Positions 14,420 through 34,091 of a stretch of DNA of 40,980 bases are shown in pieces. A model generated the notes under the pieces. The model made no database searches. It had not been told where the DNA came from and saw only the letters and a list, made by a program, of their open reading frames with translations. Each line of letters begins with the position of its first letter. Position 1 is the first letter of the stretch. Where the stretch lies: the NCBI GenBank assembly GCA_947624035.1, contig CANQIH010000001.1, positions 1-40,980 of the forward strand. Reading direction: 5' to 3'. The position numbers and the translations under genes were made by a program. The stretch comes from an uncultured Oscillospiraceae bacterium. Lineage in GTDB: Bacteria; Bacillota; Clostridia; Oscillospirales; Oscillospiraceae.

Positions 14420-14426
14420 CCCGCTG

Positions 14427-18750: not shown

Positions 18751-18752
18751 CC

Positions 18753-19755: not shown

Positions 19756-19823
19756 TCAGGCTGTCAAAGACCCTTCTTTGACAGCCTGATAAAATGCCGG
19801 GAGACCGCCTAAGTGTCTCCCGG
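19756..19823 (-). terminator. Tandem terminator after the vWA-FHA gene
   Basis: Minus strand reads CCGGGAGAC, a 9-nt loop, GTCTCCCGG, then CATTTTA, immediately followed by a perfect 15-bp hairpin TCAGGCTGTCAAAGA-AGGG-TCTTTGACAGCCTGA. Confidence 0.6.
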
Positions 19824-19830
19824 CGGGTGG

Positions 19831-21738
19831 TCAAATGTACTCCGGCGCGCTGAAATCGAATTCCAGCGTGGTCGTGCCTATCACGGCGCAGTCGCCGCAT
19901 ACCAGCTGGCGCGGCTCGTCCGCATTGAGGCGCTCGCCGTTCAGCCGTGTGCCGTTGGTGGAATTCATGTCGGCGATGAACAGTCCCTCGCCGTCGAAGA
20001 TCAGCTTCATGTGCTTTCTGGATATGGCCTTGTCGTCCACCACCACGTTCGCGACGGAATTGCGGCCGAAGGTCAGCTCCTCGCCGGGCTTCATGACCAG
20101 CCTGCGCGGCTCATGGGGCGTCCGGTCAGAGACGCGCTCCGTCACCACGACGGCCAGGACGCGCTGCTGCTTGAATGTGCCGTCCTCCTGCTGCCCCTCC
20201 CGGTCCAGAAGCACCGTTTTGTCATCGTCCACAGAGCCCAGGAAGGCGGTGCGGTCGTTGTCGTCCTCTATAGCGCCCGCAGCGCCCATGGCGCCCAGGA
20301 AAGCGGTCCTGTCGCTGTCACCGCCGCCCGCAGGGCTATCCGTGCGGAAGCCGGTGGTGCCCGGACGGTCGCGGAAACTGTAGGTCCTCTCAAGGCCGTC
20401 GTTGACGAAATCGTCGGACGCCGCGCCGTTCATGGCGCCGCCGGCGGCGTACTGGTTCACCCTGTTGGCGGGCCCGTCATACATCGTCGGCTCATCCGAG
20501 TACGGGTCCACATGGGAGATCGTGGGGTCGCCGCTCTCCTGGGGAGCGGTCTGGGCGCCCTTGTCCCCGGATCTCTTCTTCTTGCGTGTGACGGCAAAGA
20601 TCACCACGGCCACGACGACCAGCAGCGCGGCGCCTCCCGCGGCCAGCTGCCATACCGCGAACCCGGACGACTCCTCCTCTTCAGGCTCCGGCGCCTCTGT
20701 CACAGGGGGCGCCGTGGCGGCGGCTGGCGGCGGCGTCACCTTCGGACGGGCCGTCTGTTCCGGCGTAGGCGTCGCGGCCTCCTCGGGGCCGGGGATACTC
20801 GTCCAGTTGACGATCTGCATCAGCTCGTTGCTGGGGGGGATGAAACCCCGCTCCGACTGGAAGCCCACCTGGAACTTGCTGGGCTCATTGAAACCGGTCT
20901 TGCCCTCCGGGTTGGTCATGGTGGCGTGCAGCTCCACGGCGCCGCAGACGATGGCGTATATCGTGTCCAGGCTGCCGCCGATGGCGCTGGCGGGGCCGTT
21001 GAAATCCTTGCCGCCTGTGGCGTCGGCCAGCTCCCGGAGGCTGGCCTCGTTGACGCCGTCGTTGTCATTGAGGCCGATGCAGTACAGGGGCACCTGGGCC
21101 GACTGGATCTGGGCGAAGATATCCTCCTTCGTGGGGGAAGCGCTGTTATCCGGCAGGTCGTTTTTGCCGTCCGTGATGACGATGACAGCGCTCCGATCCC
21201 CGGTAGCCGCCTTGGCGCCGCGGATCACGCCCTCATAGAGGGCAGTATACCACTGGTCCGCCACGATGCCGTTGATCGTGTCCTGGATCTGCTGCTTGTT
21301 CCCGCTCTCCGGAAGAAGTTCCGTGACTGTCTCGCCGAAGGTGATGATGGTCACCGTGTCGTTGGGCCCCATCTGGTCCACGAAGGCGCACAGGGACGAG
21401 CGGACGCTCTGCATCATCGTATCGATCATCGTGCGGGACACGTCCACCACGAACACGTAGTGGATGCCCTGCGTCGCGGGGTCGTATGACTGCACGCTGT
21501 CCACATTGGCCCCCACGCCATCCACAGATACGGCGAACTGTTCAGCTGTGAAAGAACCCGTGACCGGAAATCCGCTGCTGTCGTACAGGTTCACATACAT
21601 TGTGAGGGCAGGACCGTTCTGCTGGACCTGATTGAGAATGACGTCGCTCACCTGCCGCCCCGAGGCATAGACGCCCTGGGTCAGCAGCAGGACCGCCAAA
21701 ATGCAGATCACGCCTGTCTTTACGATGCGTTTCATCAT
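19831..21738 (-). CDS. Bitopic protein: signal peptide, exported vWA domain, TM, cytoplasmic FHA domain
   Basis: MMKRIVKTGVICILAVLLLTQGVYA. vWA with a MIDAS-like motif VFVVDVSRTM...TALYEG...VIVITDGKND. TM FAVWQLAAGGAALLVVVAVVIFAV followed by KKKR. C-terminal FHA reads LTFGRNS...ISRKHMKL...STNGTRLNG. RBS GAAGGGGA precedes the ATGATG at 21738. Confidence 0.88.
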   Translation of the reverse strand: MMKRIVKTGVICILAVLLLTQGVYASGRQVSDVILNQVQQNGPALTMYVNLYDSSGFPVTGSFTAEQFAVSVDGVGANVDSVQSYDPATQGIHYVFVVDVSRTMIDTMMQSVRSSLCAFVDQMGPNDTVTIITFGETVTELLPESGNKQQIQDTINGIVADQWYTALYEGVIRGAKAATGDRSAVIVITDGKNDLPDNSASPTKEDIFAQIQSAQVPLYCIGLNDNDGVNEASLRELADATGGKDFNGPASAIGGSLDTIYAIVCGAVELHATMTNPEGKTGFNEPSKFQVGFQSERGFIPPSNELMQIVNWTSIPGPEEAATPTPEQTARPKVTPPPAAATAPPVTEAPEPEEEESSGFAVWQLAAGGAALLVVVAVVIFAVTRKKKRSGDKGAQTAPQESGDPTISHVDPYSDEPTMYDGPANRVNQYAAGGAMNGAASDDFVNDGLERTYSFRDRPGTTGFRTDSPAGGGDSDRTAFLGAMGAAGAIEDDNDRTAFLGSVDDDKTVLLDREGQQEDGTFKQQRVLAVVVTERVSDRTPHEPRRLVMKPGEELTFGRNSVANVVVDDKAISRKHMKLIFDGEGLFIADMNSTNGTRLNGERLNADEPRQLVCGDCAVIGTTTLEFDFSAPEYI

Positions 21739-21854
21739 ACCTATCCCCTTCTCATGGAAAAATCGGTGCAGCGCTCCGCGCCGCTCATTATCAAACGCCA
21801 AACAGGGAGACGCGATCGCCGCGCTCCCCTCTGTCTCTATGTACACGCCCTGCC

Positions 21855-21914: not shown

Positions 21915-22178
21915 TCACTCATCCAGATGGCTCAGCTGCTCCAGGTATGCCAGACCTTCGCCGTCCTGCATGCCGACGAAATACAGCCGCTCGATCTGCT
22001 CGGTGTCAAAGAGGAACAGACGGTCCGGGTCGATGATCCCCTCAGGATACAGGCACGCGCTGTAATCCCAGACCTTGTCGGAATCCACCTGCTTTTGCTT
22101 CACACCGACGATCATGATCCGCTTCTGGCTGTCCTTCAGCAGCACCACAGAGCCGATCGGCAGATACCTCTTCTTCAT
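21915..22178 (-). CDS. DUF4176-like protein (T7SSb-associated accessory family)
   Basis: MKKRYLPIGSVVLLKDSQKRIMIVG...WDYSACLYPEGIIDPDRLFLFDTEQIERLYFVGMQDGE matches the DUF4176 pattern (LPIGSVV.L......(M/I)I.G....DY....YPEG......F....I). Confidence 0.7.
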   Translation of the reverse strand: MKKRYLPIGSVVLLKDSQKRIMIVGVKQKQVDSDKVWDYSACLYPEGIIDPDRLFLFDTEQIERLYFVGMQDGEGLAYLEQLSHLDE

Positions 22179-22195
22179 ATGACGTCCATCCTTTC

Positions 22196-22447
22196 CTATT
22201 TGGCCAATTCTTCCAATGTATACTCCCGCCCGCAGCTCTGGCAGGTAAAAAAGTACAGGTAGTGCTTCACCTGGGCGTTTGGGATGAACAGGGCGTCGCT
22301 GCCCGTGTTGAGCTGCTCGCCCTTGACGCTCTCAAAGCCCTTCCGCTTCACCAGCTGGCCCCCGCAGCGGGGGCAGCGCTTTTTCCCGAACAGGAGGTAC
22401 CGCAGCTCACTTGGCGTAAAGTCATACTGAAATCCCTTATGCTCCAT
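22196..22447 (-). CDS. Small zinc-ribbon protein (CPRC...CQSC), candidate immunity or accessory factor
   Basis: MEHKGFQYDFTPSELRYLLFGKKRCPRCGG...FFTCQSCGREY. It lies directly downstream of the candidate toxin. Function is inferred only. Confidence 0.6.
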   Translation of the reverse strand: MEHKGFQYDFTPSELRYLLFGKKRCPRCGGQLVKRKGFESVKGEQLNTGSDALFIPNAQVKHYLYFFTCQSCGREYTLEELAK

Positions 22448-22460
22448 GGCCCACACCAGC

Positions 22461-23603
22461 TCAATCCCAGAAGGTCACGAAGTCGACGAATTTCCCGACC
22501 GCTTCCTTGCCCGCGTCATTCAGTCCGATCTCAATGCCGACGGAACCGCCGATGACGGCGGCCACACCGCCCTTCATCACGAACTTTCCGTCCCGGAAGC
22601 CGAACTCGCCTTCCACGCCTGCGCCGCCGGCGTAGCCGCTGGCCTCGCCCTTGATCTCAAGGCCCAGGAAGTTGATCGACTTGGAGGCCTTGCCCTCCAC
22701 CGCGGCGACTATGGCCTCGCCCTTTGCGTAGGCGTTGACGCCGTCCTCGCCGATGGAGAATTTCCCCTCGGCGCCGGCCCGGGCGCTGCCGACCTTTCCC
22801 TCGGCGGAGGTCTCCACGCCCAGCATATCGTCGCCGACGTTGCTGCTGTAGTCCAGTTCCAGGAACGAGACCGACGCACCGGCGGCGACCTCCGCGCCGA
22901 TGACCTGGAAGGTCTCCTTTTCGGTCCACTGGCCGTTCTCGTACTCCCGCTTGGTGACCTTCTGCATGAAGTACCCATCGGCGTCTATCTCCGCGCTGCC
23001 TTTTCCAAGGTAGGCCTTGACCTCGCGATGGTCCCACGCCGGCCCTGTGGCGGATTCCGCCTTGCCGATCCAGCCCGTGACGCCTGGATGGTCGCCGTCA
23101 AGCTCGTATCCCAGCCAGTCGCCCTTGATATTGGTCAGCAGCCCCAGGGGAGTATGGGGCAAAACGACGCCGGTGAACAGCGCCCAGGCGCCGTCCTTAA
23201 ATGCGTCCCACGGGTCCTTTCCGCCGCCGCCGTCATAGGCGCCGCCGGATACGCTGCCCATACCGGCGCCCCATTCATATCCGCGGCCCTTGGAGGCATC
23301 ATTGGCGGCCTGGAGGACCTTCTGATCCACCGCGTCAAAGGCGGCCTTCGTCCTGGCGATGCCGAGCCGGATGTCCGACAGCCGGTCCCGGGCACGCTCG
23401 ACGTCCGCGCGCAGCGAACGAACGGCGGAGCGGGCGTCGCGCGTCCCTTCGGAGAGGCGGACGTTGACCTTCCCCCACCACTCCTCCGAGGTGTTCACGC
23501 GCTGCAGGCCGCCAGCCACGTCGGACAGGGCCTCCATCAGCGCGTCCAGCTCCGACGAGGCGCCGTCCAGGCTCCTGCTGCTATATAGGATACGGTCGTT
23601 CAT
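22461..23603 (-). CDS. Candidate T7SS cargo/effector: helical N-terminal domain plus Gly/Ala-rich repetitive C-terminal domain
   Basis: 380 aa. The first ~110 aa look like a helical hairpin (MNDRILYSSRSLDGASSELDALMEALSDVAGGLQRV...). The C-terminus has repeated (A/G)EGK.S... strands and GGVAAVIGGSVGIEIG. RBS is AGGAGGA. It follows two small helical partner genes, as LXG toxins do. Confidence 0.6.
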   Translation of the reverse strand: MNDRILYSSRSLDGASSELDALMEALSDVAGGLQRVNTSEEWWGKVNVRLSEGTRDARSAVRSLRADVERARDRLSDIRLGIARTKAAFDAVDQKVLQAANDASKGRGYEWGAGMGSVSGGAYDGGGGKDPWDAFKDGAWALFTGVVLPHTPLGLLTNIKGDWLGYELDGDHPGVTGWIGKAESATGPAWDHREVKAYLGKGSAEIDADGYFMQKVTKREYENGQWTEKETFQVIGAEVAAGASVSFLELDYSSNVGDDMLGVETSAEGKVGSARAGAEGKFSIGEDGVNAYAKGEAIVAAVEGKASKSINFLGLEIKGEASGYAGGAGVEGEFGFRDGKFVMKGGVAAVIGGSVGIEIGLNDAGKEAVGKFVDFVTFWD

Positions 23604-23650: not shown

Positions 23651-23950
23651 TCAGCCGTCCATCAGATCGGCAAGACGCCTGTCAGCCTCCTCCAGGGCAT
23701 TCGCGAAACGGTCCAGCGCGCCGCTCACGCAGGCGAGATCGTCCTGCAGCGTGCGGAGCTGACGGCGGGAATCCCCCAGGGTCTTCTCCAGCGCATCCGC
23801 GGTCCGGCCCATAAAGTTCCCGTCCAGGCGGGAACCGGCCCTGTCCAGACGCGGCAGGGCCGAGGATGCCAGCATATCGGCGCAGCGCCTGATCTTCTGC
23901 GCTTCCCGGCGGATCGCCGCGGTATCGTAGTCATAGCCGTTATTGCTCAT
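23651..23950 (-). CDS. Small helical-hairpin protein, WXG100-superfamily-like (Lap2-type partner, cassette 2)
   Basis: 99 aa, with FMGRTADALE at the hairpin turn. Paralogous by eye to the 92-aa ORF at 25373..25651. RBS is AAAGAGGGGA. Confidence 0.65.
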   Translation of the reverse strand: MSNNGYDYDTAAIRREAQKIRRCADMLASSALPRLDRAGSRLDGNFMGRTADALEKTLGDSRRQLRTLQDDLACVSGALDRFANALEEADRRLADLMDG

Positions 23951-23970
23951 GCCGGTCCCCTCTTTCCTGG

Positions 23971-24001
23971 CCCGGTATCAGGGGAAACCCCTGATACCGG
24001 G
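23971..24001 (-). promoter_or_regulatory. Perfect 14-bp intercistronic stem-loop
   Basis: CCCGGTATCAGGGG-AAA-CCCCTGATACCGGG lies between the 110-aa and 99-aa genes. No U-tract follows. Confidence 0.6.
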
Positions 24002-24010
24002 CGGTCATGT

Positions 24011-24343
24011 TTACAGGTTGGACTGGTAGGCGGTGCCCGTCTCCAGACCCTGGGCCATCTGCTCGGCAGCCGTCTCCTGTTCCTCGTAGACGGACAGGGC
24101 CTCCTTCAGCTTGGAGATGACGTTGCTCATAACGGTCTCGTTCTGCTGAAGATTCTTGTAGAGCTGATCGAACTGGCTCTTAAACTTCTCGCTGGCCTCG
24201 CCGTGCCAGGTGCCGTCCAGCACACGGACTTCGTTGGAGATCTTCAGGTAGGCATTCTCCAGAGACACCTTCCTGGTCTCATAGTTGGTAATGGCGGTCT
24301 CAAGCGCCTCTCTGCTGACTCTCAGGTTGTCAATCACTGCCAT
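24011..24343 (-). CDS. WXG100-superfamily protein (WHG motif), Lap1/TIGR04197-like partner, cassette 2
   Basis: 110 aa with ...LDGTWHGEASEKFKSQF... Paralogous by eye to the 109-aa ORF at 25683..26012. RBS is GAAGGAGGA. Confidence 0.75.
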   Translation of the reverse strand: MAVIDNLRVSREALETAITNYETRKVSLENAYLKISNEVRVLDGTWHGEASEKFKSQFDQLYKNLQQNETVMSNVISKLKEALSVYEEQETAAEQMAQGLETGTAYQSNL

Positions 24344-24566
24344 GTTCTGTTCCTCCTTCGGTTACATTCTCATCGGTCAAATGGAGCATCGCCTGGAGAT
24401 TGTTTTCCATGCGGTGCAGCTCGCCCATCAGCTGGGCCATTGTTGTTTGCAGCTGCGCGGCCGCTTCTTTTTCAGTCAGCCCGGCAAACCGGGCAGCGGC
24501 TCCACCGTCCATTTCTGAGGACTGTTCCGCCGTGCAGCCAGGCGTGCCGCGTGTATCCTCCGGCAT
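24330..24566 (-). CDS. Hypothetical 78-aa protein
   Basis: Its ATG overlaps the upstream stop (TGATG), and it fills an otherwise 220-nt gap in a tightly packed operon. No recognisable motif. Confidence 0.45.
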   Translation of the reverse strand: MPEDTRGTPGCTAEQSSEMDGGAAARFAGLTEKEAAAQLQTTMAQLMGELHRMENNLQAMLHLTDENVTEGGTEHGSD

Positions 24567-24856
24567 CAGTGCGGGAAGTTCTTGGAAGAGTTGACGTCGG
24601 CCTCCTCGTACTCCCCGCGCGCCGTGTTCAGCTCTGCGGAATACGTATCCAGCACAGCGGCCAGCTCATCCATCCACTGGTGAAGCTGCTCCATGTTCTC
24701 GACGAACGTCTGAGAGGCATCGCCCGTCCAAGCCTCGCTCAGGGTCTGGGCGGCGTTGTAAATGCCGTTCGCCTCTTCCTTAAAGCTCTCGGTATAGTTG
24801 CTGATATTCTGCGCGGCGCTCTCCATTGCCGACAGGGTCACATCAAATTCAGCCAT
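24566..24856 (-). CDS. WXG100 (ESAT-6-like) protein
   Basis: 96 aa with ...LSEAWTGDASQTFVENM... (W-x-G at mid-length). RBS is AAGGAGGAA. Confidence 0.85.
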   Translation of the reverse strand: MAEFDVTLSAMESAAQNISNYTESFKEEANGIYNAAQTLSEAWTGDASQTFVENMEQLHQWMDELAAVLDTYSAELNTARGEYEEADVNSSKNFPH

Positions 24857-24898
24857 GCTTGTTCCTCCTTCGGATTACTCCTGTTGTTCATTCTTCCT

Positions 24899-25360
24899 TT
24901 AACCAAGAAACTGGTCCGCATCCGCCTCCGCTGCCGCGTTTACGAGCCACAGCGGAAGGGGCACCGTGTTTATCCGCATATCCGGCATAACGGTGAACGC
25001 ACCGGGTCCCCAGTTGACAAAGCCTTCGCCGGAAACATAGATGGGAGCTTCATGCGTCCTTTCCAGGGCCTCTCCCCTGCGTAGGATCCCAGCCTCTGTC
25101 TCCCGGAACGACTCATCCGTACGCCTTACGGCGTTCTCGTAGGCGTTCACACTGTCCCGCAGCGCCTTCATTCGCAGGACACAGTCCTCGAAACGGGCTG
25201 ACAGCGTTTGCAGCGCCTTGTTCTCACCATCAGGATTCGCCTCCGACAGCGCCAGCCGAACTGACGCGGCCATCTGAAGGCAATCCTCCAGTCCATGATC
25301 CGCCCGTCTCAAGCGGTCCATCGTCTCCTGCGCTGCGTTGCTGCTCCATTGGATCCTCAT
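24899..25360 (-). CDS. Helical T7SS-associated protein, possible short cargo of cassette 1
   Basis: 153 aa. The first ~100 aa are predicted helical, followed by a Trp/Pro/hydrophobic tail GFVNWGPGAFTVMPDMRINTVPLPLWLV. It occupies the same slot as the 380-aa protein in cassette 2. RBS is GGAGG. Confidence 0.55.
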   Translation of the reverse strand: MRIQWSSNAAQETMDRLRRADHGLEDCLQMAASVRLALSEANPDGENKALQTLSARFEDCVLRMKALRDSVNAYENAVRRTDESFRETEAGILRRGEALERTHEAPIYVSGEGFVNWGPGAFTVMPDMRINTVPLPLWLVNAAAEADADQFLG

Positions 25361-25372
25361 ACGAACCTCCAG

Positions 25373-25651
25373 TCACAGCTTTTCAGCCAGTTCATTATCC
25401 GCCTGTTCAAGCAGATCGGCATATACCATGATCCGGTGAGCCAGTTCTTCCATCTCCCCCTGCAGGCCGGCGGCCGCTTTGAGAAGCTGGTCCATCTGCT
25501 CTTCCATCGCCTGCGCGGTCCGCCCCCGGAAGCTCTCCAGGCACCCGGACGCATCCCGGACCGCAGGCATCACGTTTCCGTCCATATCCGCTGCCAGCTG
25601 CTTTAGCAGTCTTCCGGCGCCGCGTGTTTTTGCTGAATCATATACAGCCAA
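25373..25651 (-). CDS. Small helical-hairpin protein (Lap2-type partner, cassette 1)
   Basis: 92 aa with a TTG start and FRGRTAQAME at the turn. Paralogous to 23651..23950. Confidence 0.6.
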   Translation of the reverse strand: MAVYDSAKTRGAGRLLKQLAADMDGNVMPAVRDASGCLESFRGRTAQAMEEQMDQLLKAAAGLQGEMEELAHRIMVYADLLEQADNELAEKL

Positions 25652-25682
25652 TGCCGATCTACCTCTTCCTTACAGGATCAGA

Positions 25683-26012
25683 TCAAAGATAAGTGGGGGC
25701 GTTGGAGCCGACCTCCAGGGAGGCGGACTGATTGCCCACATTGCCCTCGGTGGTCTCCATCGTGTTGATGGTGTTGCGCAGGCCGGTCACCGTCTCGTCG
25801 ATGGCCCGGTCAGCGGTGATGACGTTGGCCTTGATGTCAACGTACCGTGCGCTCAGCGCCAGATAAGCGGGGCCCTTGTAGCAGTTGTCCAGGTGCTCCT
25901 TCGCGGCGTCCAGCTTCTGATAGGCGTCCTGGAGCGTCTGGCGGGCGGACTCATAGCGCTGGATGGCAGCTTCCATCTCGGCGGTGCTGACAAGAATACG
26001 ATCGTTTGCCAT
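25683..26012 (-). CDS. WXG100-superfamily-like protein (YKG in place of WXG), Lap1/TIGR04197-like partner, cassette 1
   Basis: 109 aa: MANDRILVSTAEMEAAIQRYE...NCYKGPAYLAL...SLEVGSNAPTYL. RBS is AAAGGAGGAA. Confidence 0.7.
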   Translation of the reverse strand: MANDRILVSTAEMEAAIQRYESARQTLQDAYQKLDAAKEHLDNCYKGPAYLALSARYVDIKANVITADRAIDETVTGLRNTINTMETTEGNVGNQSASLEVGSNAPTYL

Positions 26013-26031
26013 GGTTGTTTCCTCCTTTCAA

Positions 26032-26325
26032 TTAACCCTCTACGATGCTCTTGACGGCGTCTTCCATCTCGTTGTAAAGATCAATGAACTTCCGGATCAC
26101 CTGAATCATCTCGCGGATGATCCGCAGCATCTGCTGGTACCAGGTGTAGGCGTTCTCCTGATGGGCGACGAACGCGTCCTTCGTGGCGCCTTCCCACTTG
26201 CTGGCGAGATCGTTGGCAGCGCTCTTTGACGCCTCAACGGCCTCCTCGTAGATCTCCGCAGCCTGGTTCATTTCGTTGGCGGCCTGAGCGAGCTCAGCAG
26301 CCTGAACGAGCAGTTCCAATACCAT
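26032..26325 (-). CDS. esxA: WXG100 (EsxA/ESAT-6-like) protein
   Basis: 97 aa with ...LASKWEGATKDAFVAHQ... Perfect RBS AAAGGAGGAACAGGAAATG. It is preceded by a 138-nt intergenic region. Confidence 0.88.
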   Translation of the reverse strand: MVLELLVQAAELAQAANEMNQAAEIYEEAVEASKSAANDLASKWEGATKDAFVAHQENAYTWYQQMLRIIREMIQVIRKFIDLYNEMEDAVKSIVEG

Positions 26326-26463: not shown

Positions 26464-26715
26464 TTACATCAAGATCAGCTGTGAACCGTCCCGCAGACCC
26501 GCCTCCGCCACGGTCAGCCGGGGGTCCAGGATCATCTCACGGTCCCGGTCGCAGAGGATAGCCTGCTCCCGGTCGAACTCCAGGTCCTGCTGCGTCGTCT
26601 CCAGGATGCGGATCACCTCGTCGGTGATATCCCCCACGCGGCCGATGGACGGCAGACGAAAATCGTAGCTGGCCGATGTGGCGGGGATGTATACCTCAAC
26701 TATTATAGATTCCAT
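26464..26715 (-). CDS. esaB: YukD/EsaB ubiquitin-like T7SS component
   Basis: 83 aa: MESIIVEVYIPATSASYDFRLPS...LTVAEAGLRDGSQLILM, compared with the B. subtilis YukD pattern (FDLRL...L...G..DGD.L.L). The ATG lies 1 nt after the upstream TGA. Confidence 0.8.
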   Translation of the reverse strand: MESIIVEVYIPATSASYDFRLPSIGRVGDITDEVIRILETTQQDLEFDREQAILCDRDREMILDPRLTVAEAGLRDGSQLILM

Positions 26716-26716
26716 T

Positions 26717-27223
26717 TCACCGAACCTCACTCTCTTTCATCTGCTGGAAGAGGGATTGGAGCGCCTGCTGGCCGTCCCCCTCCCCGGAGAGGCTGTCTTT
26801 TATCACCAGGGACACATGCACCGGTCCCTCCAGACGGGCCGCCGCATCCTGGCATGGCTCCCATGCGCCCGCCATATCCGGCAGCGGCTCCAGCGTCAAC
26901 ACGCCGTCCTTCTCCTCCGCCAGCACGCATATCCGCGCGCCGCGGTACAGCACCGCCGTCCCGTTCTGCCCTCGCAGCGCCAGGCGGCATTTGCTCCGCC
27001 CCGCCTCACGCATGGTGAGCGAGACAGCCCTGTCCACCAGGACCCGTTCCCCGCACACCATCACCGTACCGCCCGCGATGAGGTCCTGCACCGTTTTCTC
27101 CTCCGGCTGCAGCGCCTTCACAGACGTATCCGGCAGCGACGGCAGGTCCATCAGCTTCAAAAGCGCGGCCAGCTCCCGGCTCCCGAACCGGAAAGCGATC
27201 CGCTCCACCGCGTCGTGGCTCAT
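26717..27223 (-). CDS. Hypothetical 168-aa soluble protein in the T7SS core operon
   Basis: ATGA overlap with the LytTR gene stop, with AAGGAGGTGA upstream of the ATG at 27223. The longer track ORF (to 27373) would overlap the LytTR gene. No motif recognised. Confidence 0.7.
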   Translation of the reverse strand: MSHDAVERIAFRFGSRELAALLKLMDLPSLPDTSVKALQPEEKTVQDLIAGGTVMVCGERVLVDRAVSLTMREAGRSKCRLALRGQNGTAVLYRGARICVLAEEKDGVLTLEPLPDMAGAWEPCQDAAARLEGPVHVSLVIKDSLSGEGDGQQALQSLFQQMKESEVR

Positions 27224-27969
27224 CCGCGGCTCACCTCCTTCAAGCGCTCCCGAAGGGCGTCCTTGTATGACCGCGACACAGGGAGCCGCTCGTTGGTCGT
27301 AAGGCAGACCGTCATCTCCGGCGATATAAAGCTCTCCACATAGTCCCTGTTCACGATATAGGAGCGGTGGCACCGGATAAAGCTCTCCGGCAGCTCCTCC
27401 GCCAGCGTGTTGAGGCTGGCGCGGATGGTGATGGCGTGGTGGGCCGTGCAGACACGCAGAAGCTTGTTCTGCGCCTCCAGATACAGGATATCCTTGTAGG
27501 CGATGCGCTGCACGGTGCCCCCTGTGCTCACGACCATGTACGCGCCCTCGTTCCCCTGCTCATACAGGGCCTCATAGTCGTTCAGGATGCGCCGCAGGCT
27601 CACCCGCGCCAGCTCATCCCGCAGAGGGAGCATCAGCACGCCCGCAGGCCGCATGCACCGGCTGAGGACGGCGTCCAGCAGGTTTCCGTCGTGGACGCAC
27701 AGCAGCGCATAGTTGTCCCGGTTGCGGCCCATCACACCGGCAAAGCGGCGGATGCAGCCCTCCGCACCTTCGGGCCCGGCGTCCGTCACGCCCAGGATCA
27801 CCAGCATGATGCCGGTCTCCGTCTCCACCATGCGGTCCAGCTCCGGGAGCGAGCCCGTCAGAAGCTCGATGCGCAGAGACGGGTATTCCCGGCGGACCAG
27901 CTCACCCAAAAGCTCCGCCCAGCGGGCACGGACCCGTTCATCCGGCTCGCAAATGACCACCGGAAGCAT
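27220..27969 (-). CDS. LytTR-family DNA-binding regulator with a degenerate (pseudo-)receiver domain
   Basis: C-terminal LytTR signature: IAYKDILYLEAQNKLLRV...FIRCHRSYIVNRDYV. The N-terminus is AgrA-like (VVICEPDE...; ALLCVHDG), but the phospho-acceptor position reads LVILGVTD against AgrA YFLDIQL. The ATG lies 6 nt after the essC stop, and its RBS GAGGAGGAG sits inside the essC 3' end. Confidence 0.8.
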   Translation of the reverse strand: MLPVVICEPDERVRARWAELLGELVRREYPSLRIELLTGSLPELDRMVETETGIMLVILGVTDAGPEGAEGCIRRFAGVMGRNRDNYALLCVHDGNLLDAVLSRCMRPAGVLMLPLRDELARVSLRRILNDYEALYEQGNEGAYMVVSTGGTVQRIAYKDILYLEAQNKLLRVCTAHHAITIRASLNTLAEELPESFIRCHRSYIVNRDYVESFISPEMTVCLTTNERLPVSRSYKDALRERLKEVSRG

Positions 27970-27975
27970 ACACGT

Positions 27976-30900
27976 TTACTCCTCCTCTTCCTTCTCCGCC
28001 AGGGGAACGACGATCTGGAGCGTGTTGCCGTTGTCCCCGGCGAATCCCTGGCCTATAGGCAGCGCTGCGCCCCGGACCTTGGAAGTGAGGGCCGCGCCCA
28101 CGTTGCAGGGGTCGAACTCCGTGAGCTTGCCGCCCAGCGCGATAGCCCGCCCCTGGGCGATGAGCTTCTTGAGCGGATCGTACATGACGGCTGTCTTCTC
28201 CGCCGAAGAGACGCCCATAAACACGGTGAAGTTGTAGTAGGGCTTCTCCACGATCTCCCCCAGCAGGCCCTGCACCATGGGAAGATGCTGCTTGTTGGGC
28301 TCCTTGTTGAACTCGCCGTAGAGCCGCTCCGCGTTGTCGATCAGCACGCAGCATGGCTTGAACTCCGCCGCCTGCCGGATCGCCGCCGCCTTGCCCTTGG
28401 CCACCGCCGCGTCATGCAGCGGCTTGCGGGCCTTGGCATAGCTGACGATGAACGACTGCAAAAACTGTGCGATCTCCTCCGGCGTGCTGTACAGCTTGGC
28501 GCCCAGCGTGCCGGCCAAATCGGTCCAGTTGTCGTCGGCGATGATGTGTACGTCCGCGCCGCGCTCTGTCATCACACGGGCCATCAGCTTCAGGAAGTTG
28601 GTGATGCCGCTTCGCTTCGGGCCGTAGACCGCCCAGGACGGCGCCTTCTCCGTATGGAGCGCAGCCATGGTGCCGCGGACCATGTCGTAGCCGATGGGCA
28701 GCGTGAAGGGCTCGGTCTTTGTCTGCCCGAACTCCTTCGCGGCGAACAGGGTCTCCCAGGTGGGGTCCTGGGGCAGACGGGGTATCCCGTCGGGACGGGC
28801 GCCATGCCAGGCGCTGTCCAGACCCTTCGCGTATCCAGCGATGAGCTCTGCCCTGTCCACATCGGTGAGCGGCTCGGTCATCTCCATCGCGTGGGTGACG
28901 GTATACTTCTCCCCCTGGGTCAAGGACTCGAAGCCCTCTTCCGTGTGGGCAGGCGCGGCGCCGCCCATGGCGAACTGTACCTCGTAGATCTTCCCCGCAA
29001 TGATGCCCATGCCGCGTCCGGTCAGAGCCGCGATGGGCGGCATATCGTAGGGGACCGTCTTGCCGATGCACTCGGTGTAGTCGCCCCGCTCCTTCAGCCG
29101 CAGGGCCACGCCGCCGAAGCTGGGACGGACCTTCATCGGCACCTCGTTGTTGGCCATGGCCGTCACCACGAAGTGGATGCCGCGGCCGCTGCCCTCCTGG
29201 AGCAGGGACTGGATGCGGGCCGTATAGAAGTCCTCGTTCGCGAACATCTCCCGCAGCTGGGCGTAGCGGTCCACGAACACCACGATGGCCGGCTCGGGCT
29301 TTTCGCCCCGCTTGACGCGGGCGGTGTTGTACTCCACGAAGCTGTCTGTGGAGGCGGCGGCGAACAGGTTCGCCCGGCGGCCCATCTCCGCGAAGAGCAT
29401 GTTGATGAACCGCTTGATCTCCAGTATCTCCCCGTCGAAGGCGATATCGCCCACCTGAGGGAACGCCAACAGGTTCCGAAGGGTCTGGCTGGTGAGGCTC
29501 AGGATATAGATGTTCAGATGCTCTGGATCGTAGAGGCTGCACAGGGAGTAGACCATGCTCTGGACCAGGGTCGTCTTGCCGGTGCCGGCCAGGCCCGTGA
29601 TCATCAGGTTGCGGTTCTGGGTCAGGTCCAGGGTGAAGGGCACGTAGCGCTGGTTGGCCACGTCGTCCGCCATGCCGGCCGGGATGATGATGTTCCCCGC
29701 CGGGTTGGGGTAGGCGCTGCCGTCCCACATGGCCCGCCGGAACATCTCGATATCCCGCAGGTAGATGTGCTGGGGCAGCTCCGGCAGCCAGAGCTGCCGG
29801 TTGGTGGACATGCCGTGCTCCGCGGCCACCTCCATGATGCGGTCCAGCACCGCCTCCATCTGGGACGGCGGCTTCTGGCCGGAGGACCCGCCCTTTTTGC
29901 CCGCCGGGACCACATGGCCGATGCTGCTGAGCAGCTGGGGCATCTCCTCCGGGCGGGGCTCATCCGGCTTGTAGGCCAGGCCGGAGTAGCTGGTCTGGAC
30001 CTGGTGGAACTCCTCGTCGTTGCCGATCTGGATGAAGCAGCGGCCCATGCCCTTGATGTAGGCGGCGTCTGGGCGCTTGAGCATCTCCATGGAGTCCTGG
30101 CGGGTCTGCACACGCAGGCACAGGTGGAACCGGGAGTTGGCCCAGATCTCGTCGCTGACCGAGTTGGACGGCTTCTGGGTGGCCAGGATGAGGTGGATGC
30201 CCAGGGAACGGCCCACGCGGGACGCGCTCACCAGCTCGCCCATGAACTCCGGCTGTTCGCTCTTCAGCTCGGCGAACTCGTCCACGATGATGATGAGGTG
30301 CGGCATCTCCCGGCCGGGGATGTCGCCGTACTGCCGGGTGTAGTCGTTGATGTTGTTGATCTGGACCTCTTTGAAGATGCGCTCGCGGCGGTGGATCTCG
30401 CCGTTGAGGGACGCCAGGGCCCGGTCGATCACCCGGGGACCCTGGAGGTTGTCGATGATGCCGGCCACATGGGGCAGTTCCCGGAAGGAGTCGGCCATGC
30501 CGCCGCCCTTGTAGTCGATGAGGATGAACTGCACCTGACGGGGGCTGTAGTTCAGGGCCAGCGAGAGGATGTATGTCTCCAGCATGACGGACTTGCCGGA
30601 GCCGGTGGTGCCGGCGATCAGGCCGTGGGGACCGTGGAAGCGGTCGGATATATCCAGCACGAAGGGCTGGGAGCCGGCCCGGTAGCCGATGACGGACTTG
30701 AGCCCCTCGTAGGTGTGGTTCTCCGTCCACATCCGCCAGACTTCCAGGTCCTCCGTCCGGCGCACGCCGTAGATATCCAGGAACGACACCAGCGTGGGGA
30801 TGGCGGCGTTCTCCGCCACGTCCCGCACCCGAATGGGCGCCATCGTGCGGGAGAAGGACCGGACCAGGCCCTTGTCCGGGTACTCGAAATCCACCTCGCG

Positions 30901-32733
30901 GGTGGTGCCCTCGCTGGAGTGTATGTGGCCCTTTCCGCCCTCCACGTTGAGCACCAGACGGCACTCCTTGGGCAGGTGGGTCATATCCTCTCCCAGCATC
31001 ACCAGCGTCATGCCCTGCCGGTTGGTCAGCAGCTGGCGCATGATGATCTCATCCTCCAGGATGCGGTAGTTGGTGCAGAAGATCACATAGTGGGGCAGCG
31101 GCGGCGCGTCCTTCGCGCCCTCCTCGCCATTGTCCCGGCCCGCCGACTCGGCGGCGTTGTTCTTTCGGATGGTCAGCACCTCTTCCAGGTGGCTCACCAC
31201 GTCGTGGACGTCGTCCGGGTTGGAGGCGACCATCCGCAGCTGCCGGTCCTCACTGGCGAACACATGGGGCAGCCAGCGGGCCCAGGACCACTGGGACAGG
31301 CTCCCCTCCTCCGTCAGTACGGCGATGCGCACGTCGTGGTAGCTGTGCAGCGCGGCGATCTGCATCAAAAGGCCCTGGGCGAACAGGGTCGCCCGTACGC
31401 CGCCCAGGATGCCGATCACGGCCTCGTCCCGCAGGGGCAGCGTCACCGGGGCGTTGTGCACGACGGAATAGGTCTGCCGCAGCCGCTCGGGCTCCTGGCG
31501 GAGATCGTCGTCGATCAGGGACAGCTTCTCCTTGGGGACGGATATCTCGCAGGGCATGTCCACCGTGCCGGTGCCCACGCGCACATGGAGGAAGTCCCCG
31601 TGCAGGGGCATCCGGTCCCACATCTGGTGGGTATTGGCCGCCGGCAGCGCGGCGCACTGGGCCACATTGGGGAACGTATCCATCAGACGGCGGTGCTCCC
31701 GCTCGTTCATGGTCCTCAGGATGCTCTCCATCTCCGTGATGTACCGCTGGTACATCCCGATGCGGCGGTTCTCCATTATGATCTCAGTTTTCTTTCGGTG
31801 GGTGCGGTTGATGAGGCCCCACATCACAGCCAGCACGGAGGACGTGCCGATCATCACGACGCCGCTGGAGAGCAGCCCGTTGCGGTTGCTGGCCACCAGC
31901 GTGCCCATCAGCATGGGCAGGATCATGGTCATGGACGGACCCAGCTGAAGGAGCAGCGGCTGCTGGTTGGGGTCGGGCTTGGGCAGCGGCGCCTCGATGT
32001 CCACATCCTCCGCCTCGCAGGGCGTGAGCATGCGGGGGATGCGCTGATACTCCCGGTAAACGCTTGGCAGCTCCTGGTCCTCACCGTCCGGGAGGGCCTT
32101 GACATAGTCCACGCGCCACTTCTCCAGGCGGCACTCCTGGCTGGTGGCCGTCCGGCTGACAGCGATGCACTTGTCGAGATAGATGACCTTCAGGCCCGTG
32201 GGGAACGCCAGCACGTCGCCGAACTTCAGCTTGACCTTGCTGCCGATCATCTTCAGCCCGTTCAGATATGTACCGTTGGTGGACTTATCCTGATACCGGA
32301 CATACCCGTCCTGGGTCAGGCCCAGGTATCCGTGCTCCGTGCTCATGAGCGCGCCCGTATCCCGGATATCCGCGTTCTCCCCGCGGCCGATGACCAGCAT
32401 CCGCTGCTTGGGCATGGCATATTTGGAAAAGCGCAGCCAGTGCTTGTCGCAGGGCTTCACGACCATCATGATCTCCCGGCCGCTTTGGGGCTCACACATG
32501 GTGAACACCGAGTCGCCCTTGACCTCGCGCTCCCGGCGCCCGCCGCCCTTCCAGCTCAGCGGCGTCTGGGGAGAGACCCAGACGCGGCCGTCCAGAGAGC
32601 GGACGGAGATATACATATCATAGTCCAGACCGGCCTCATCCTGGCGGAGGACGATCTTTCTGTTCCAGCTTTTCAGGTCCGGGAAATACACATCCTTGAA
32701 CCAGTCGCCGTACATCAGCCATGCGGTGTACAT
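27976..32733 (-). CDS. essC: EssC/YukB-type FtsK-SpoIIIE ATPase (T7SSb motor): two N-terminal FHA domains, 2 TM, three P-loop domains
   Basis: 1585 aa. FHA-2 reads LVIGRGEN...MSTEHG...STNGTYLNG. TMs are LGPSMTMILPMLMGTLVA and VVMIGTSSVLAVMWGLI. Walker A motifs are GTTGSGKS (D1), GLAGTGKT (D2) and a degenerate GPKRSGIT (D3). RBS is GGAGG. Confidence 0.93.
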   Translation of the reverse strand: MYTAWLMYGDWFKDVYFPDLKSWNRKIVLRQDEAGLDYDMYISVRSLDGRVWVSPQTPLSWKGGGRREREVKGDSVFTMCEPQSGREIMMVVKPCDKHWLRFSKYAMPKQRMLVIGRGENADIRDTGALMSTEHGYLGLTQDGYVRYQDKSTNGTYLNGLKMIGSKVKLKFGDVLAFPTGLKVIYLDKCIAVSRTATSQECRLEKWRVDYVKALPDGEDQELPSVYREYQRIPRMLTPCEAEDVDIEAPLPKPDPNQQPLLLQLGPSMTMILPMLMGTLVASNRNGLLSSGVVMIGTSSVLAVMWGLINRTHRKKTEIIMENRRIGMYQRYITEMESILRTMNEREHRRLMDTFPNVAQCAALPAANTHQMWDRMPLHGDFLHVRVGTGTVDMPCEISVPKEKLSLIDDDLRQEPERLRQTYSVVHNAPVTLPLRDEAVIGILGGVRATLFAQGLLMQIAALHSYHDVRIAVLTEEGSLSQWSWARWLPHVFASEDRQLRMVASNPDDVHDVVSHLEEVLTIRKNNAAESAGRDNGEEGAKDAPPLPHYVIFCTNYRILEDEIIMRQLLTNRQGMTLVMLGEDMTHLPKECRLVLNVEGGKGHIHSSEGTTREVDFEYPDKGLVRSFSRTMAPIRVRDVAENAAIPTLVSFLDIYGVRRTEDLEVWRMWTENHTYEGLKSVIGYRAGSQPFVLDISDRFHGPHGLIAGTTGSGKSVMLETYILSLALNYSPRQVQFILIDYKGGGMADSFRELPHVAGIIDNLQGPRVIDRALASLNGEIHRRERIFKEVQINNINDYTRQYGDIPGREMPHLIIIVDEFAELKSEQPEFMGELVSASRVGRSLGIHLILATQKPSNSVSDEIWANSRFHLCLRVQTRQDSMEMLKRPDAAYIKGMGRCFIQIGNDEEFHQVQTSYSGLAYKPDEPRPEEMPQLLSSIGHVVPAGKKGGSSGQKPPSQMEAVLDRIMEVAAEHGMSTNRQLWLPELPQHIYLRDIEMFRRAMWDGSAYPNPAGNIIIPAGMADDVANQRYVPFTLDLTQNRNLMITGLAGTGKTTLVQSMVYSLCSLYDPEHLNIYILSLTSQTLRNLLAFPQVGDIAFDGEILEIKRFINMLFAEMGRRANLFAAASTDSFVEYNTARVKRGEKPEPAIVVFVDRYAQLREMFANEDFYTARIQSLLQEGSGRGIHFVVTAMANNEVPMKVRPSFGGVALRLKERGDYTECIGKTVPYDMPPIAALTGRGMGIIAGKIYEVQFAMGGAAPAHTEEGFESLTQGEKYTVTHAMEMTEPLTDVDRAELIAGYAKGLDSAWHGARPDGIPRLPQDPTWETLFAAKEFGQTKTEPFTLPIGYDMVRGTMAALHTEKAPSWAVYGPKRSGITNFLKLMARVMTERGADVHIIADDNWTDLAGTLGAKLYSTPEEIAQFLQSFIVSYAKARKPLHDAAVAKGKAAAIRQAAEFKPCCVLIDNAERLYGEFNKEPNKQHLPMVQGLLGEIVEKPYYNFTVFMGVSSAEKTAVMYDPLKKLIAQGRAIALGGKLTEFDPCNVGAALTSKVRGAALPIGQGFAGDNGNTLQIVVPLAEKEEEE

Positions 32734-32753
32734 ATCATATATCCTCCCGCCGA

Positions 32754-34091
32754 TCAGTAATAAGCGTACTCCACCTCAAAGGGCCGGTCGTTGATGGTGA
32801 GCCGGTCGCCCTGGACCAGCCGGTACGGCTGTTCCGCCGTCATGCGCGTGCTGTTGAGATACGTCCCGTTCACCGAGCCCAGGTCAACCGCGTAGCAGGC
32901 GTCCTCATCCTGATGGTATTCGATGCGCAGATGGCGGCGGCCGATACGGGGATCGTTCAGCTTGAAGTCGTTGTGCACTTCGCGTCCGATGGTGTACACC
33001 GGCCTGTCCACCATGATCCTCTGCCCCTCCACAGCGCCCTGCTCCGCCAGGATGAGGTATGTCCTCTTGGCGGGCTGCACCGGGGGAGGCACCGGCTTGC
33101 CGGAGGTATCCAGCAGGACGTTCTTTTTCTTTCTGGCAAAGAGCTCGGGCTTTTGACGCTTCAGGATCACCAGACTGACGAGGAGGATGGCGATCCCCAG
33201 AAGCAGATAGAGCAGGCTCGCCAGCGCCAGCAGGAGCAGGATGGCCGCCACCGGGATCAGGATGATGATGAGATACAGAGAGCGGTTCTCCACCGTCCCC
33301 TCCGGCGTGCTCTTGGCCGTCAGCTTGATGATCAGCACCACGATGACGCAGATGAGGGCGAAGGCGATGAGCAGCACCAGCGCGTTCGGCAGGCTGACGC
33401 CTGATATCTCGCTGCTCCCCTTCACATAGGACAGCACGCGCCCGCTGAAGCTCAGGGCGGAGGAATACGCCGCCGCATCGTCGCCGAACAGCACCGACTG
33501 CAGCTCCGCCGTGATGCCCTCGCCGTCCTCATAGACCAGCTTATTGCAGCGCACGAACTCGTCGATCACATCCTGCAGCGCGCCGTCGTATACGCCGGGC
33601 GTCAGGCCGTCCGACACGGCGTCGTAGCCCAGCTGATTGAGCCGGTTCTGCACCCGCGTGACCGCCTCGCCCTCAGCGCCGGGGAGGAGGTCGGCATACT
33701 CGCCGCCCTCGGGCGTGACCAGCGGTCCCTCCGTCTCGCCCATGACCCGCCAGTACAGGGAATAGGTCACGCCGTCCTCATAATAGGTGAACTCCGGGTT
33801 GAGGCGGCACACCTGCATCACCGCAGCCATGGTCAGGTCGTCCAGCTCCTTGGACTGGAGAACGGCATCGCTGGCGCCTGCAGTGTAGAACCCGAGTTCA
33901 TTGAGCCGCGCCTTGAAATTGATGACGTCGACACTCACGACGTTGGGATCGTCGTCGACCTTAAATATAAATTCGGCATCGAAGTCGAACTCGTCCCCCT
34001 CGGCGGCGTACGCCGCGGCCGTGAAGGACAGGACGGCTGCCACCGCCAGGACGGCTGCCAGTATCCGCATCATCTTATTTCTCAGTGCCAT
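32754..34091 (-). CDS. Membrane protein: signal peptide, two PG_binding_1-like repeats (exported), ~3 TM, cytoplasmic FHA domain
   Basis: Signal peptide ILAAVLAVAAVLSFTAAAYAAE. Repeats ARLNELGFYTAG...TMAAVMQV and VQNRLNQLGYDAVSDGLTPGVYDGALQDVIDEFV. Hydrophobic stretches LVLLIAFALICVIVVLII and LYLIIILIPVAAILLLLALASLLYLLLGIAILLVSLVIL. FHA reads YTIGREV...IGRRHLRI...SVNGTYLN. Confidence 0.82.
   Translation of the reverse strand: MALRNKMMRILAAVLAVAAVLSFTAAAYAAEGDEFDFDAEFIFKVDDDPNVVSVDVINFKARLNELGFYTAGASDAVLQSKELDDLTMAAVMQVCRLNPEFTYYEDGVTYSLYWRVMGETEGPLVTPEGGEYADLLPGAEGEAVTRVQNRLNQLGYDAVSDGLTPGVYDGALQDVIDEFVRCNKLVYEDGEGITAELQSVLFGDDAAAYSSALSFSGRVLSYVKGSSEISGVSLPNALVLLIAFALICVIVVLIIKLTAKSTPEGTVENRSLYLIIILIPVAAILLLLALASLLYLLLGIAILLVSLVILKRQKPELFARKKKNVLLDTSGKPVPPPVQPAKRTYLILAEQGAVEGQRIMVDRPVYTIGREVHNDFKLNDPRIGRRHLRIEYHQDEDACYAVDLGSVNGTYLNSTRMTAEQPYRLVQGDRLTINDRPFEVEYAYY

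Follow-up and report, generated by a model that had tools for sequence, protein, structure and literature searches.

Can the motor ATPase of a type VII secretion system (T7SS) itself read Ser/Thr phosphorylation? The question is raised by the essC gene on a 40,980-nucleotide stretch of DNA from an uncultured Oscillospiraceae bacterium (contig CANQIH010000001.1, analysed over this full length and hereafter called the window). A preliminary description had credited the second FHA domain of the EssC protein (FHA-2) with all three hallmarks of phosphothreonine (pThr) recognition, namely Gly-Arg (GR), Ser-x-x-His (SxxH) and Asn-Gly (NG), and had suggested that the motor reads a phospho-signal written by the operon's own kinase. 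On the evidence compiled here, which draws on sequence, a structural model and analogy, we put the probability at about one half that FHA-2 is a pThr reader linking the motor to a partner protein whose phosphorylation is set by kinases and PP2C phosphatases. Phospho-reading by EssC as such appears plausible; its tie to the operon's own kinase is weak because, within the clade of the window, the triad of motifs does not track adjoining kinases.

The protein scores 919.7 bits against the EssC equivalog model TIGR03928 (cut-off 778.4) and matches Pfam FtsK_SpoIIIE in two stretches (185 bits), with extra P-loop matches at residues 1035-1180 (third P-loop). Its architecture, with the transmembrane (TM) region read from the sequence, comprises a tandem FHA region, two TM helices (about 258-279 and 286-307), a DUF/stalk region and the ATPase domains. 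Along with the equivalog match, the N-terminal domain, the two TM helices and the several FtsK/SpoIIIE domains, the six WXG100 genes and the YukD/EsaB ubiquitin-like gene downstream mark it as an EssC. A ribosome-binding site, GGGAGG, lies 9 nt upstream of the essC ATG, and the third codon positions of the frame are 91 % G+C (GC3), on which ground a plus-strand open reading frame (ORF) at 27367-32760 (1797 aa) was rejected; both this ORF and a plus-strand reading of 32179-32421 are antisense artefacts of the GC3-rich minus-strand gene. Translated from the minus strand, 32179-32421 gives YAMPKQRMLVIGRGENADIRDTGALMSTEHGYLGLTQDGYVRYQDKSTNGTYLNGLKMIGSKVKLKFGDVLAFPTGLKVIY, which includes the peptide quoted in the preliminary description; this reverse-complement translation begins with YAMPKQRMLVIGRGENADIRDTGALMSTEHGYLGLTQDGYVRYQDKSTNGTYLNG and corresponds to EssC residues 105-185. 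All three motifs are found there, as Gly116-Arg117, Ser131-His134 and Asn153-Gly154, in agreement with the preliminary description. Its label FHA-2 is likewise correct, residues 1-104 forming a first β-sandwich that lacks the triad, in a model that matches the tandem-FHA structures of EssC N-termini (EssC-N).

The likeness of FHA-2 to FHA domains far exceeds chance. The Pfam FHA family (PF00498, gathering cut-off 20.7 bits) matches EssC only once in the whole protein, at residues 114-177, with 34.3 bits, rising to 39.1 bits for the isolated domain. The best phmmer matches of FHA-2 among PDB sequences are the FHA domains of Rad53 (FHA1), Ki-67, Dun1, CHFR and Rv1747, and in a residue-for-residue comparison Rad53 FHA1 has GR opposite GR, S-N-K-H opposite S-x-x-H, and STNGTWLNG opposite STNGTYLNG. 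An AlphaFold2 model of EssC residues 1-232, built on an alignment of 38 homologous N-termini (mean pLDDT 91.8, pTM 0.83), consists of two β-sandwiches at about 2-106 and 113-193. The preliminary description had proposed a structural comparison with Rad53 and with EssC of S. aureus and Geobacillus. In a Foldseek search of the PDB the model matches EssC-N before anything else, the best hit being Geobacillus EssC-N 5fwh (E 3.5e-8, target TM 0.71, 220 columns), with S. aureus EssC-N 1wv3 and chain H of 9qks, from the 2025 cryo-EM study of the B. subtilis T7SSb core unit, among the other leading matches. Ranked after these follow classical pThr-binding FHA domains, several of them with bound phosphopeptide (Rad53 1g6g, Rv1747 FHA-2 at 28 % identity and an rmsd of 2.6 Å, GarA, FhaA), and the probability reaches 1.00 for many FHA structures, peptide complexes included. 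By family score, β-sandwich fold and apical-loop GR, SxxH and NG residues FHA-2 is therefore an FHA domain, and pThr binding is predicted. It resembles the canonical pThr-binding domains of Rad53 FHA1, Ki-67, Rv1747 and GarA in that all signature residues align and the fold matches; these are, however, independent signalling modules with measured pThr binding, whereas EssC FHA-2 is known here from sequence and model.

FHA-1 presents a different picture, with neither GR, SxxH or NG in its sequence nor a Pfam match, although its N-terminus, MYxAWLxFGDxFKDVYFPD in the alignment consensus, is strongly conserved within the clade. Between the N-terminal profile of the clade and S. aureus EssC-N, sequence likeness is undetectable (hhalign probability 0.3 %). 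Since this profile alignment is unusable, the comparison with T7SSb rests on Foldseek and on published data (Fig. S2 and Table S1 of PMC11217815). EssC/YukB of T7SSb (1WV3, 5FWH, 9QKS) shares the two-FHA fold, its arrangement and its position in the protein, and there, too, FHA-2 is a partner-binding domain: the 2025 cryo-EM study of T7SSb reports a dimer of the pseudokinase YukC bound to the tip of FHA2 in YukB (PMC12637312). The T7SSb domain differs in having GR and SxxH in 0 of 100 proteins and in binding the pseudokinase independently of phosphorylation.

Among 114 full-length homologues, Gly is found at position 116 in 113, Arg117 in 106, Asn153 in 102 and Gly154 in 112, while position 131 is occupied by Ser in 97 and by Thr in 14, a hydroxyl group being kept in 111 of the 114; position 134 is His in 87 and Gln in 27 (24 %). 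The resulting values of 97 % for Ser/Thr131, 93 % for Arg117 and 89 % for Asn153 compare with a mean column identity of 44 % over the domain. Ser and Thr replace each other at position 131 among relatives of 70-77 % identity, which looks like a constraint on the hydroxyl group.

The subtypes T7SSc to T7SSj were described by Garrett, Higginson & Palmer 2024 (PMC11217815). In TsdC, TseC and TsjC the pThr consensus of the FHA domain is intact, the same systems possess genes for TsxD (kinase), TsxF (PPM phosphatase) and TsxJ (FHA protein), and threonine phosphorylation was proposed to control assembly or activity of T7SSd/e/j, with the type VI secretion system (T6SS) as analogy (PMC11217815). According to Table S1 of that work, GR, SxxH and NG occur in 100, 98 and 90 % of TsdC, in 98, 99 and 90 % of TseC, and in 100, 100 and 100 % of TsjC proteins, all of them from systems with a kinase; the values are 0, 0 and 88 % for TsfC, 20, 30 and 90 % for TsiC, and 0, 0 and 21 % for TsbC, the T7SSb EssC (100 proteins), and none of these three has a kinase component (PMC11217815). 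In our own controls, EssC proteins of T7SSb type (Listeria, S. oralis and two others) lack the triad, and those of Bacillus sp. REN16 (T7SSe-like) and of an Eggerthellaceae bacterium (T7SSd-like) carry it with a kinase nearby. As judged from the published table and these controls, the triad does track kinases between subtypes. The statement in the preliminary description that characterized EssC FHA domains lack pThr-contacting residues is accurate: according to Zoltner et al. 2016, EssC-N has none of the motifs and residues implicated in pThr recognition, and their search for an FHA partner was unsuccessful (PMC4925161); Table S1 as well as our T7SSb controls agree. The survey that it had proposed, of the triad across EssC clades in relation to kinases, is the one already published in Table S1. 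Phospho-reading by the motor is accordingly a published hypothesis at the level of the class (TsdC/TseC/TsjC; Garrett 2024), of which the window is a further example and not a new principle.

The surroundings of essC (Table 1) are rich in signalling genes. Upstream, all on the minus strand and separated by short intergenic gaps, the order is PP2C1, STK1 (the first of three Ser/Thr kinases, STK), a membrane FHA protein and essC. The membrane FHA protein consists of a signal/TM segment, an extracellular PG_binding_1 domain, two TM helices and a C-terminal cytoplasmic FHA domain (residues 366-433). In this domain a Gly replaces the serine of SxxH (IGRRH), whereas EssC FHA-2 and the vWA-FHA protein described below keep the full triad, and on paper FHA-2 is for this reason better suited to read pThr than the FHA domain of its neighbour. 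In most related loci the gene directly preceding essC is an orthologue of this membrane protein. STK1 possesses the catalytic Lys, CRD in place of HRD, DLG in place of DFG, and GT..APE; it has no TM helix and is soluble, as judged from sequence and hydropathy. A small FHA-only protein of about 180 aa is encoded between the membrane FHA gene and essC in L082, L083, L084, L097, L098, L099 and L102, relatives without an adjoining kinase/PP2C pair, and is missing from the window, P0002 and P0093, all three of which have such a pair.

Table 1. Coordinates of the features of the window discussed in the text.
Feature	Positions	Strand	Basis
essC/tsxC, T7SS FtsK-like ATPase, 1585 aa	27976-32733	minus	TIGR03928 and Pfam
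FHA-1, degenerate β-sandwich, residues 1-104	32422-32733	minus	AlphaFold2 strands 2-106 with pLDDT >90; Foldseek to 5fwh/1wv3 over about 220 columns
FHA-2, canonical FHA domain, residues 105-195	32149-32421	minus	Pfam, HMMER alignment, Foldseek
Gly116-Arg117 (GR motif, β3-β4 loop)	32383-32388	minus	
Ser131-Thr-Glu-His134 (SxxH motif)	32332-32343	minus	
Asn153-Gly154 (NG motif)	32272-32277	minus	
Membrane FHA protein, 445 aa	32754-34091	minus	Pfam FHA 64.5 bits, PG_binding_1 32.6 bits; hydropathy
STK1, Hanks-type Ser/Thr kinase, 318 aa	34146-35102	minus	Pfam Pkinase 121.6 bits
PP2C1, PPM-family Ser/Thr phosphatase, 259 aa	35122-35901	minus	Pfam PP2C_2 51.4 bits, PP2C 37.2 bits
LytTR-family DNA-binding protein, 249 aa, first gene after essC	27220-27969	minus	Pfam LytTR 86.2 bits
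168-aa ORF between LytTR and yukD, overlapping the LytTR stop codon by 4 nt	26717-27223	minus	no Pfam match
YukD/EsaB-like ubiquitin-fold protein	26464-26730	minus	Pfam YukD 36.9 bits
Six WXG100-family genes and one 153-aa ORF	23651-26325	minus	Pfam WXG100
380-aa protein, then 86-aa zinc-ribbon ORF, then DUF4176	21915-23603	minus	
Second signalling module (vWA-FHA, PP2C2, STK2, STK3)	14427-21846	minus	
vWA(extracellular)-TM-linker-FHA protein, 671 aa	19831-21846	minus	Pfam VWA, FHA 55 bits
PP2C2 phosphatase	18753-19586	minus	Pfam PP2C_2 37.9 bits
STK2, transmembrane Hanks kinase, extracellular NPCBM domains	16327-18798	minus	Pfam Pkinase 154 bits, NPCBM 69 bits; TM 379-397
STK3, transmembrane Hanks kinase, extracellular Flg_new_2 (InlB B-repeat-like) domains	14427-16277	minus	Pkinase 124 bits, Flg_new_2 54.6 bits; TM 383-401
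Transglutaminase-core-like protein, secreted	13133-14400	minus	
DUF1002/WG-repeat protein, 1288 aa	7617-11483		
Transglutaminase-core-like protein, secreted	4945-7548	plus	
rimP-nusA-ylxR-infB housekeeping operon	3-3424	minus	

Downstream of essC, 11 of 12 related loci keep the LytTR gene, which apart from this clade is described for T7SSi only; the N-terminal part of its product, about 150 aa, has no match to a Pfam receiver domain and is possibly a degenerate receiver. ORFs of 166-190 aa occupy the position of the 168-aa ORF in 9 of the 12. The 380-aa protein, helical at its N-terminus and rich in Gly over its C-terminal half, is probably an effector of LXG-type or pore-forming T7SS appearance, and no TM helix is present in the product of the 86-aa CxxC...CxxC zinc-ribbon ORF. 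Most related loci contain similar unannotated genes, of about 350-500 aa, with DUF4176 after them. The second signalling module comprises the vWA-FHA protein, PP2C2, STK2 and STK3. The FHA domain of the vWA-FHA protein carries a full GR/SRKH/NG triad, and its linker contains three D[KR]T[AV]x[LI] motifs. Of 12 related loci, 6 likewise encode a vWA-FHA protein, and the vWA-FHA/PP2C/STK module recurs at variable positions. In total the locus encodes three Hanks kinases as writers, two PP2C phosphatases as erasers, and further FHA readers. Beyond STK3, two secreted transglutaminase-core-like proteins are encoded, the minus-strand one concealed beneath a spurious plus-strand ORF (13136-14455), and a DUF1002/WG-repeat protein flanks the kinase module. 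A housekeeping operon bounds the window on the left, so that the T7SS island is chromosomal.

Between subtypes the triad follows the kinases, but within the clade of the window it does not. The neighbourhoods of 13 loci were surveyed over 10 kb on each side of essC, kinases and PP2C phosphatases being rescreened with hidden Markov models. Seven loci carry the full triad: the window (three STK, two PP2C), P0002 (STK and two PP2C), P0036 (STK and PP2C), P0021 (PP2C at the edge), and P0010, P0013 and P0052, which have neither within 10 kb. The other six are P0006 (TxxH, neither), P0102 (TxxH, STK and PP2C), P0073 (SxxQ, neither), P0093 (SxxQ, STK and PP2C), P0116 (GS, PP2C only) and P0114 (no triad, neither). 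The suggestion that the motor reads a phospho-signal is a reasonable one for a locus with three STK, two PP2C and FHA readers. The part that names the operon's own kinase finds no support in a survey where P0010, P0013 and P0052 combine the triad with no kinase, and P0093 and P0102 a kinase with a degenerate triad. A further FHA-domain protein is encoded in all 13 loci, in 11 of them directly upstream of essC.

Several observations weigh against a pThr reader in FHA-2, or against its coupling to the kinases of the locus, and should be considered together. An STK accompanies three of the seven full-triad and two of the six variant loci, and a PP2C four of seven and three of six (Fisher p = 1), as counted in 10-kb flanks on fragmented contigs of metagenome-assembled genomes (MAGs), which cannot exclude more distant kinases. 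The soluble kinase of STK1 type is confined to the window and its closest relative, P0002 (77 %), and STK1 is for this reason not a core component. The strict GR/SxxH/NG triad is realized in 53 of the 114 full-length homologues (46 %), 26 others having SxxQ and 14 TxxH, and still others losing the Arg or the Asn; among representatives at 50 % identity (from a library of 1.84 billion) it occurs in 19 of 55 tandem-FHA N-termini (35 %), and the residue most often replaced in these 55 is the phosphate-binding Arg (by Lys in nine, by Ser in nine, and by Thr and others). The sister clade (MAG proteins of Ruminococcus, Blautia and Lachnospiraceae) lacks this Arg in six of six proteins, and yet signalling genes lie nearby, namely one kinase in Ruminococcus L004, and two kinases and three PP2C genes in Lachnospiraceae L009. 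For the distant loci the kinase/PP2C screen relied on phmmer, which is insensitive (it missed the kinases of T7SSc), and the set was too heterogeneous for a 2x2 test. Finally, full-text searches of the literature turned up neither binding experiments with pThr nor phosphorylation data for an FHA domain of EssC type.

What could FHA-2 bind? In the canonical set of residues Arg117 and Ser131 would contact the phosphate and Asn153 the peptide backbone, with Gly116, His134 and Gly154 supporting the loop architecture, and the apical loops, the tip of the domain, would engage a pThr-bearing stretch of a partner protein. A Hanks kinase would place this phosphate and a PP2C phosphatase remove it, and assembly or activation of the EssC complex might thereby be gated post-translationally, provided that the pocket is functional and accessible. 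For access to the loops in the tandem, membrane-bound context, the use of the FHA2 tip as YukC-binding surface in T7SSb lends indirect support. The phospho-target could be an autophosphorylated kinase, or it could lie in the T-V/A-x-L/I repeats that STK2, STK3 and the vWA-FHA protein carry in their cytoplasmic linkers. In the proteins of the window (11,664 aa) there are six copies of D[KR]T[AV][FVL][LID], where 0.03 are expected, and all six lie in cytoplasmic linkers, at position 319 of STK2, 315 and 331 of STK3, and 512, 531 and 542 of the vWA-FHA protein. The strict motif is absent from 12 related loci; looser T-V-x-L/D repeats are present in the same linker in relatives. To judge from their sequence, the D[KR]T-type sites are plausible candidates for FHA docking, their pT+3 position being hydrophobic or acidic.

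A pThr reader is not the only way to understand a conserved FHA-2. The domain could be a docking scaffold that works without phosphorylation, for membrane partners such as the peptidoglycan (PG)-binding FHA protein, YukD or the 168-aa protein, its triad being kept by ancestry or for loop stability. T7SSb sets the precedent, where FHA2 binds the EssB/YukC pseudokinase in this manner. The incomplete conservation of the strict triad (46 % of close homologues, 35 % of representatives), the frequent replacement of Arg117 and the lack of any relation between triad status and kinases are in line with such a role, as is the conserved core of the neighbourhood, which consists of FHA proteins, LytTR and YukD and includes no kinase. 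It is harder to reconcile with phosphate-contacting positions conserved far above the mean of the domain, with the drifted FHA-2 of T7SSb, in which phospho-independence goes along with GR and SxxH at 0 %, and with a locus saturated with STK, PP2C and FHA genes; on balance we regard a mere scaffold as somewhat unlikely.

If FHA-2 does read pThr, the writer need not be STK1. It could be a kinase encoded elsewhere, such as a housekeeping one of PASTA/PrkC type, or else STK2 or STK3, with STK1 and PP2C1 as a lineage-specific addition. The three full-triad loci with neither STK nor PP2C in their flanks, the restriction of STK1-type kinases to the window and P0002, the variable position of the vWA-FHA/PP2C/STK module, and the enrichment of D[KR]T motifs in STK2, STK3 and the vWA-FHA protein, with none in STK1, would all fit. 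Against it stand the location of STK1 and PP2C1 in the same string of genes, directly before the FHA protein and essC with short gaps in between, and the limited reach of the flanks on fragmented contigs, which could hide distant kinases; we consider this variant distinctly unlikely. Intramolecular FHA-pThr regulation is known for Rv1747 and Rad53, and FHA-2 might in the same way bind a pThr in the linker that connects it to the TM region of EssC (about 195-235, SRTATSQE...), with autoinhibition or activation of the motor as the outcome. This linker does contain several Thr and Ser residues. It is, however, poorly conserved in the clade (its consensus reads 'x' throughout), has a pLDDT of 41-60 in the model and shows no enriched motif, and such a switch is highly improbable. 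The reading of FHA-2 as a pThr reader that docks the motor onto a phosphorylated partner combines the conserved phosphate-contacting residues with the co-encoded kinases, phosphatases and FHA proteins, and it is retained at the even odds given at the outset.

To which T7SS does this motor belong? The 120 best homologues of EssC, at 37-77 % identity, come from metagenomes, and those with names are MAG proteins (Clostridia, Oscillospiraceae, Lawsonibacter sp., Candidatus Ornithocaccomicrobium) without RefSeq WP_ accession, for which reason the RefSeq-based survey of 2024 probably missed the clade. A metagenome search with the clade-specific alignment gave 10 loci, mostly short. A profile search of genome contigs with the full-length alignment yielded, among the matches listed, distant EssC/EccC loci of at most 37 % identity, which served as controls and for the tree. 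Compared with the published TsxC representatives, whose imperfect sequences were taken from optically recognized text of Fig. S2 (PMC11217815), the first 680 residues of EssC are closest to TsiC (28 %, 190 bits) and TseC (26 %, 181 bits), followed by TsjC (162), TsfC (149), TsdC (123) and T7SSb EssC (82), identity to the TseC, TsjC and TsdC representatives being 25-26 %. In a crude neighbour-joining tree of the TM/DUF region, calculated without bootstrap, the clade of the window forms a branch of its own, with the Ruminococcus, Blautia and Lachnospiraceae MAG proteins as sister, apart from the branches of TsiC (which joins L002), TsdC (with Coriobacteriia), TseC (with Bacillus sp. REN16), TsjC, TsfC and T7SSb. 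The locus is therefore apparently an unclassified variant, a non-canonical T7SS of an uncultured, high-GC Clostridia/Oscillospiraceae bacterium, as far as sequence comparison can tell.

Its gene content is a mosaic, combining the LytTR gene known from T7SSi with the signalling genes (kinase, phosphatase, FHA) of T7SSe/j; DUF6382, an Ig-like TsxI, a membrane-bound TsxD and the TsiM NTPase were not found among the window ORFs. With T7SSd/e/j it shares an EssC-type ATPase with a GR/SxxH/NG FHA domain, a Hanks kinase, a PP2C phosphatase, a separate FHA protein, a YukD-like protein and several WXG100 proteins. The gene set of T7SSe in particular (kinase, PPM phosphatase, FHA protein, YukD and at least two WXG100) is present. 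It differs in that its FHA protein has a PG-binding ectodomain and TM helices instead of DUF6382, in that no large Ig-like TsxI was detected, in the soluble nature of the kinase adjoining essC as compared with the single-pass membrane protein TsxD, and in the LytTR regulator and the conserved 168-aa ORF after essC. An assignment to T7SSe was rejected, since the FHA partner has no DUF6382 (TseJ), there is no Ig-like giant (TseI), neither STK1 nor the zinc-ribbon protein has a TM helix (TseD and TseK, respectively), and EssC, at 26 % identity to TseC, falls outside the branch of TseC and Bacillus sp. REN16, with the reservations about the recognized text and the tree mentioned above. T7SSi (Vallitalea) provides the best BLAST match (TsiC), a LytTR regulator (TsiN) and WXG100 genes scattered beside candidate substrates; its TsiC motifs are, however, poorly conserved and no kinase is associated. 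As EssC lies outside the TsiC clade and no TsiM-like P-loop NTPase with C-terminal TM helix was found in the window, this assignment was likewise abandoned. T7SSb was discarded because EssB/YukC, EssA and EsaA have no Pfam match among the called ORFs of the window and because the EssC triad is complete, as opposed to 0 % for GR and SxxH in T7SSb.

Among systems further afield, the threonine-phosphorylation pathway of T6SS (PpkA/PppA/Fha1; Fha-pThr-TssL in Agrobacterium) offers the parallel of a Hanks kinase with a sensor ectodomain, a PP2C phosphatase and an FHA reader which together gate assembly of a secretion machine. The machine itself is unrelated, and the T6SS reader is a separate protein, whereas in the window the FHA domain is fused to the motor ATPase. 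A bioRxiv preprint of 2026 reports a threat-sensing pathway (Esr) of vWA, kinase, phosphatase and FHA proteins that controls Esx in Actinomycetales (PMC13622651); threonine phosphorylation of the FHA protein was demonstrated, and modulation of EccC by an FHA domain was proposed (PMC13622651). The second signalling module of the window resembles this pathway: in both cases a vWA protein, a kinase with its phosphatase and an FHA protein as output are encoded within T7SS operons or beside them. Esr is, however, actinobacterial, employs a MoxR ATPase and β-propeller sensors, and has an EccC without FHA domains, while in the window, from a Bacillota genome, a single membrane-spanning protein combines vWA and FHA, and a search of the ORFs gave no MoxR. 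Along these lines one may go further and suppose a distinct T7SS subtype, seen so far in metagenome assemblies only, with a core of PG-binding FHA protein, EssC, LytTR, 168-aa protein and YukD, whose FHA-2 tip would dock on T-V/A-x-L/I repeats phosphorylated by the transmembrane sensor kinases of the locus with their glycan-binding ectodomains. In this full form the proposal is speculative and, we think, unlikely to hold; if true, it would amount to a post-translational, threat-sensing trigger of type VII secretion, analogous to the threonine-phosphorylation pathway of T6SS, and the phospho-independent pair of FHA domain and pseudokinase in T7SSb would be what is left, in degenerate form, of a real kinase-FHA switch.

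What the window adds is an apparently unclassified clade, a set of concrete candidate phospho-sites, and a warning that retention of the motif is independent of kinases next to essC. A motor ATPase that reads Ser/Thr phosphorylation would provide a direct regulatory mechanism by which a variant T7SS is switched on. It would also explain, in terms of evolution, the odd contact between FHA domain and pseudokinase in the well-studied T7SSb.

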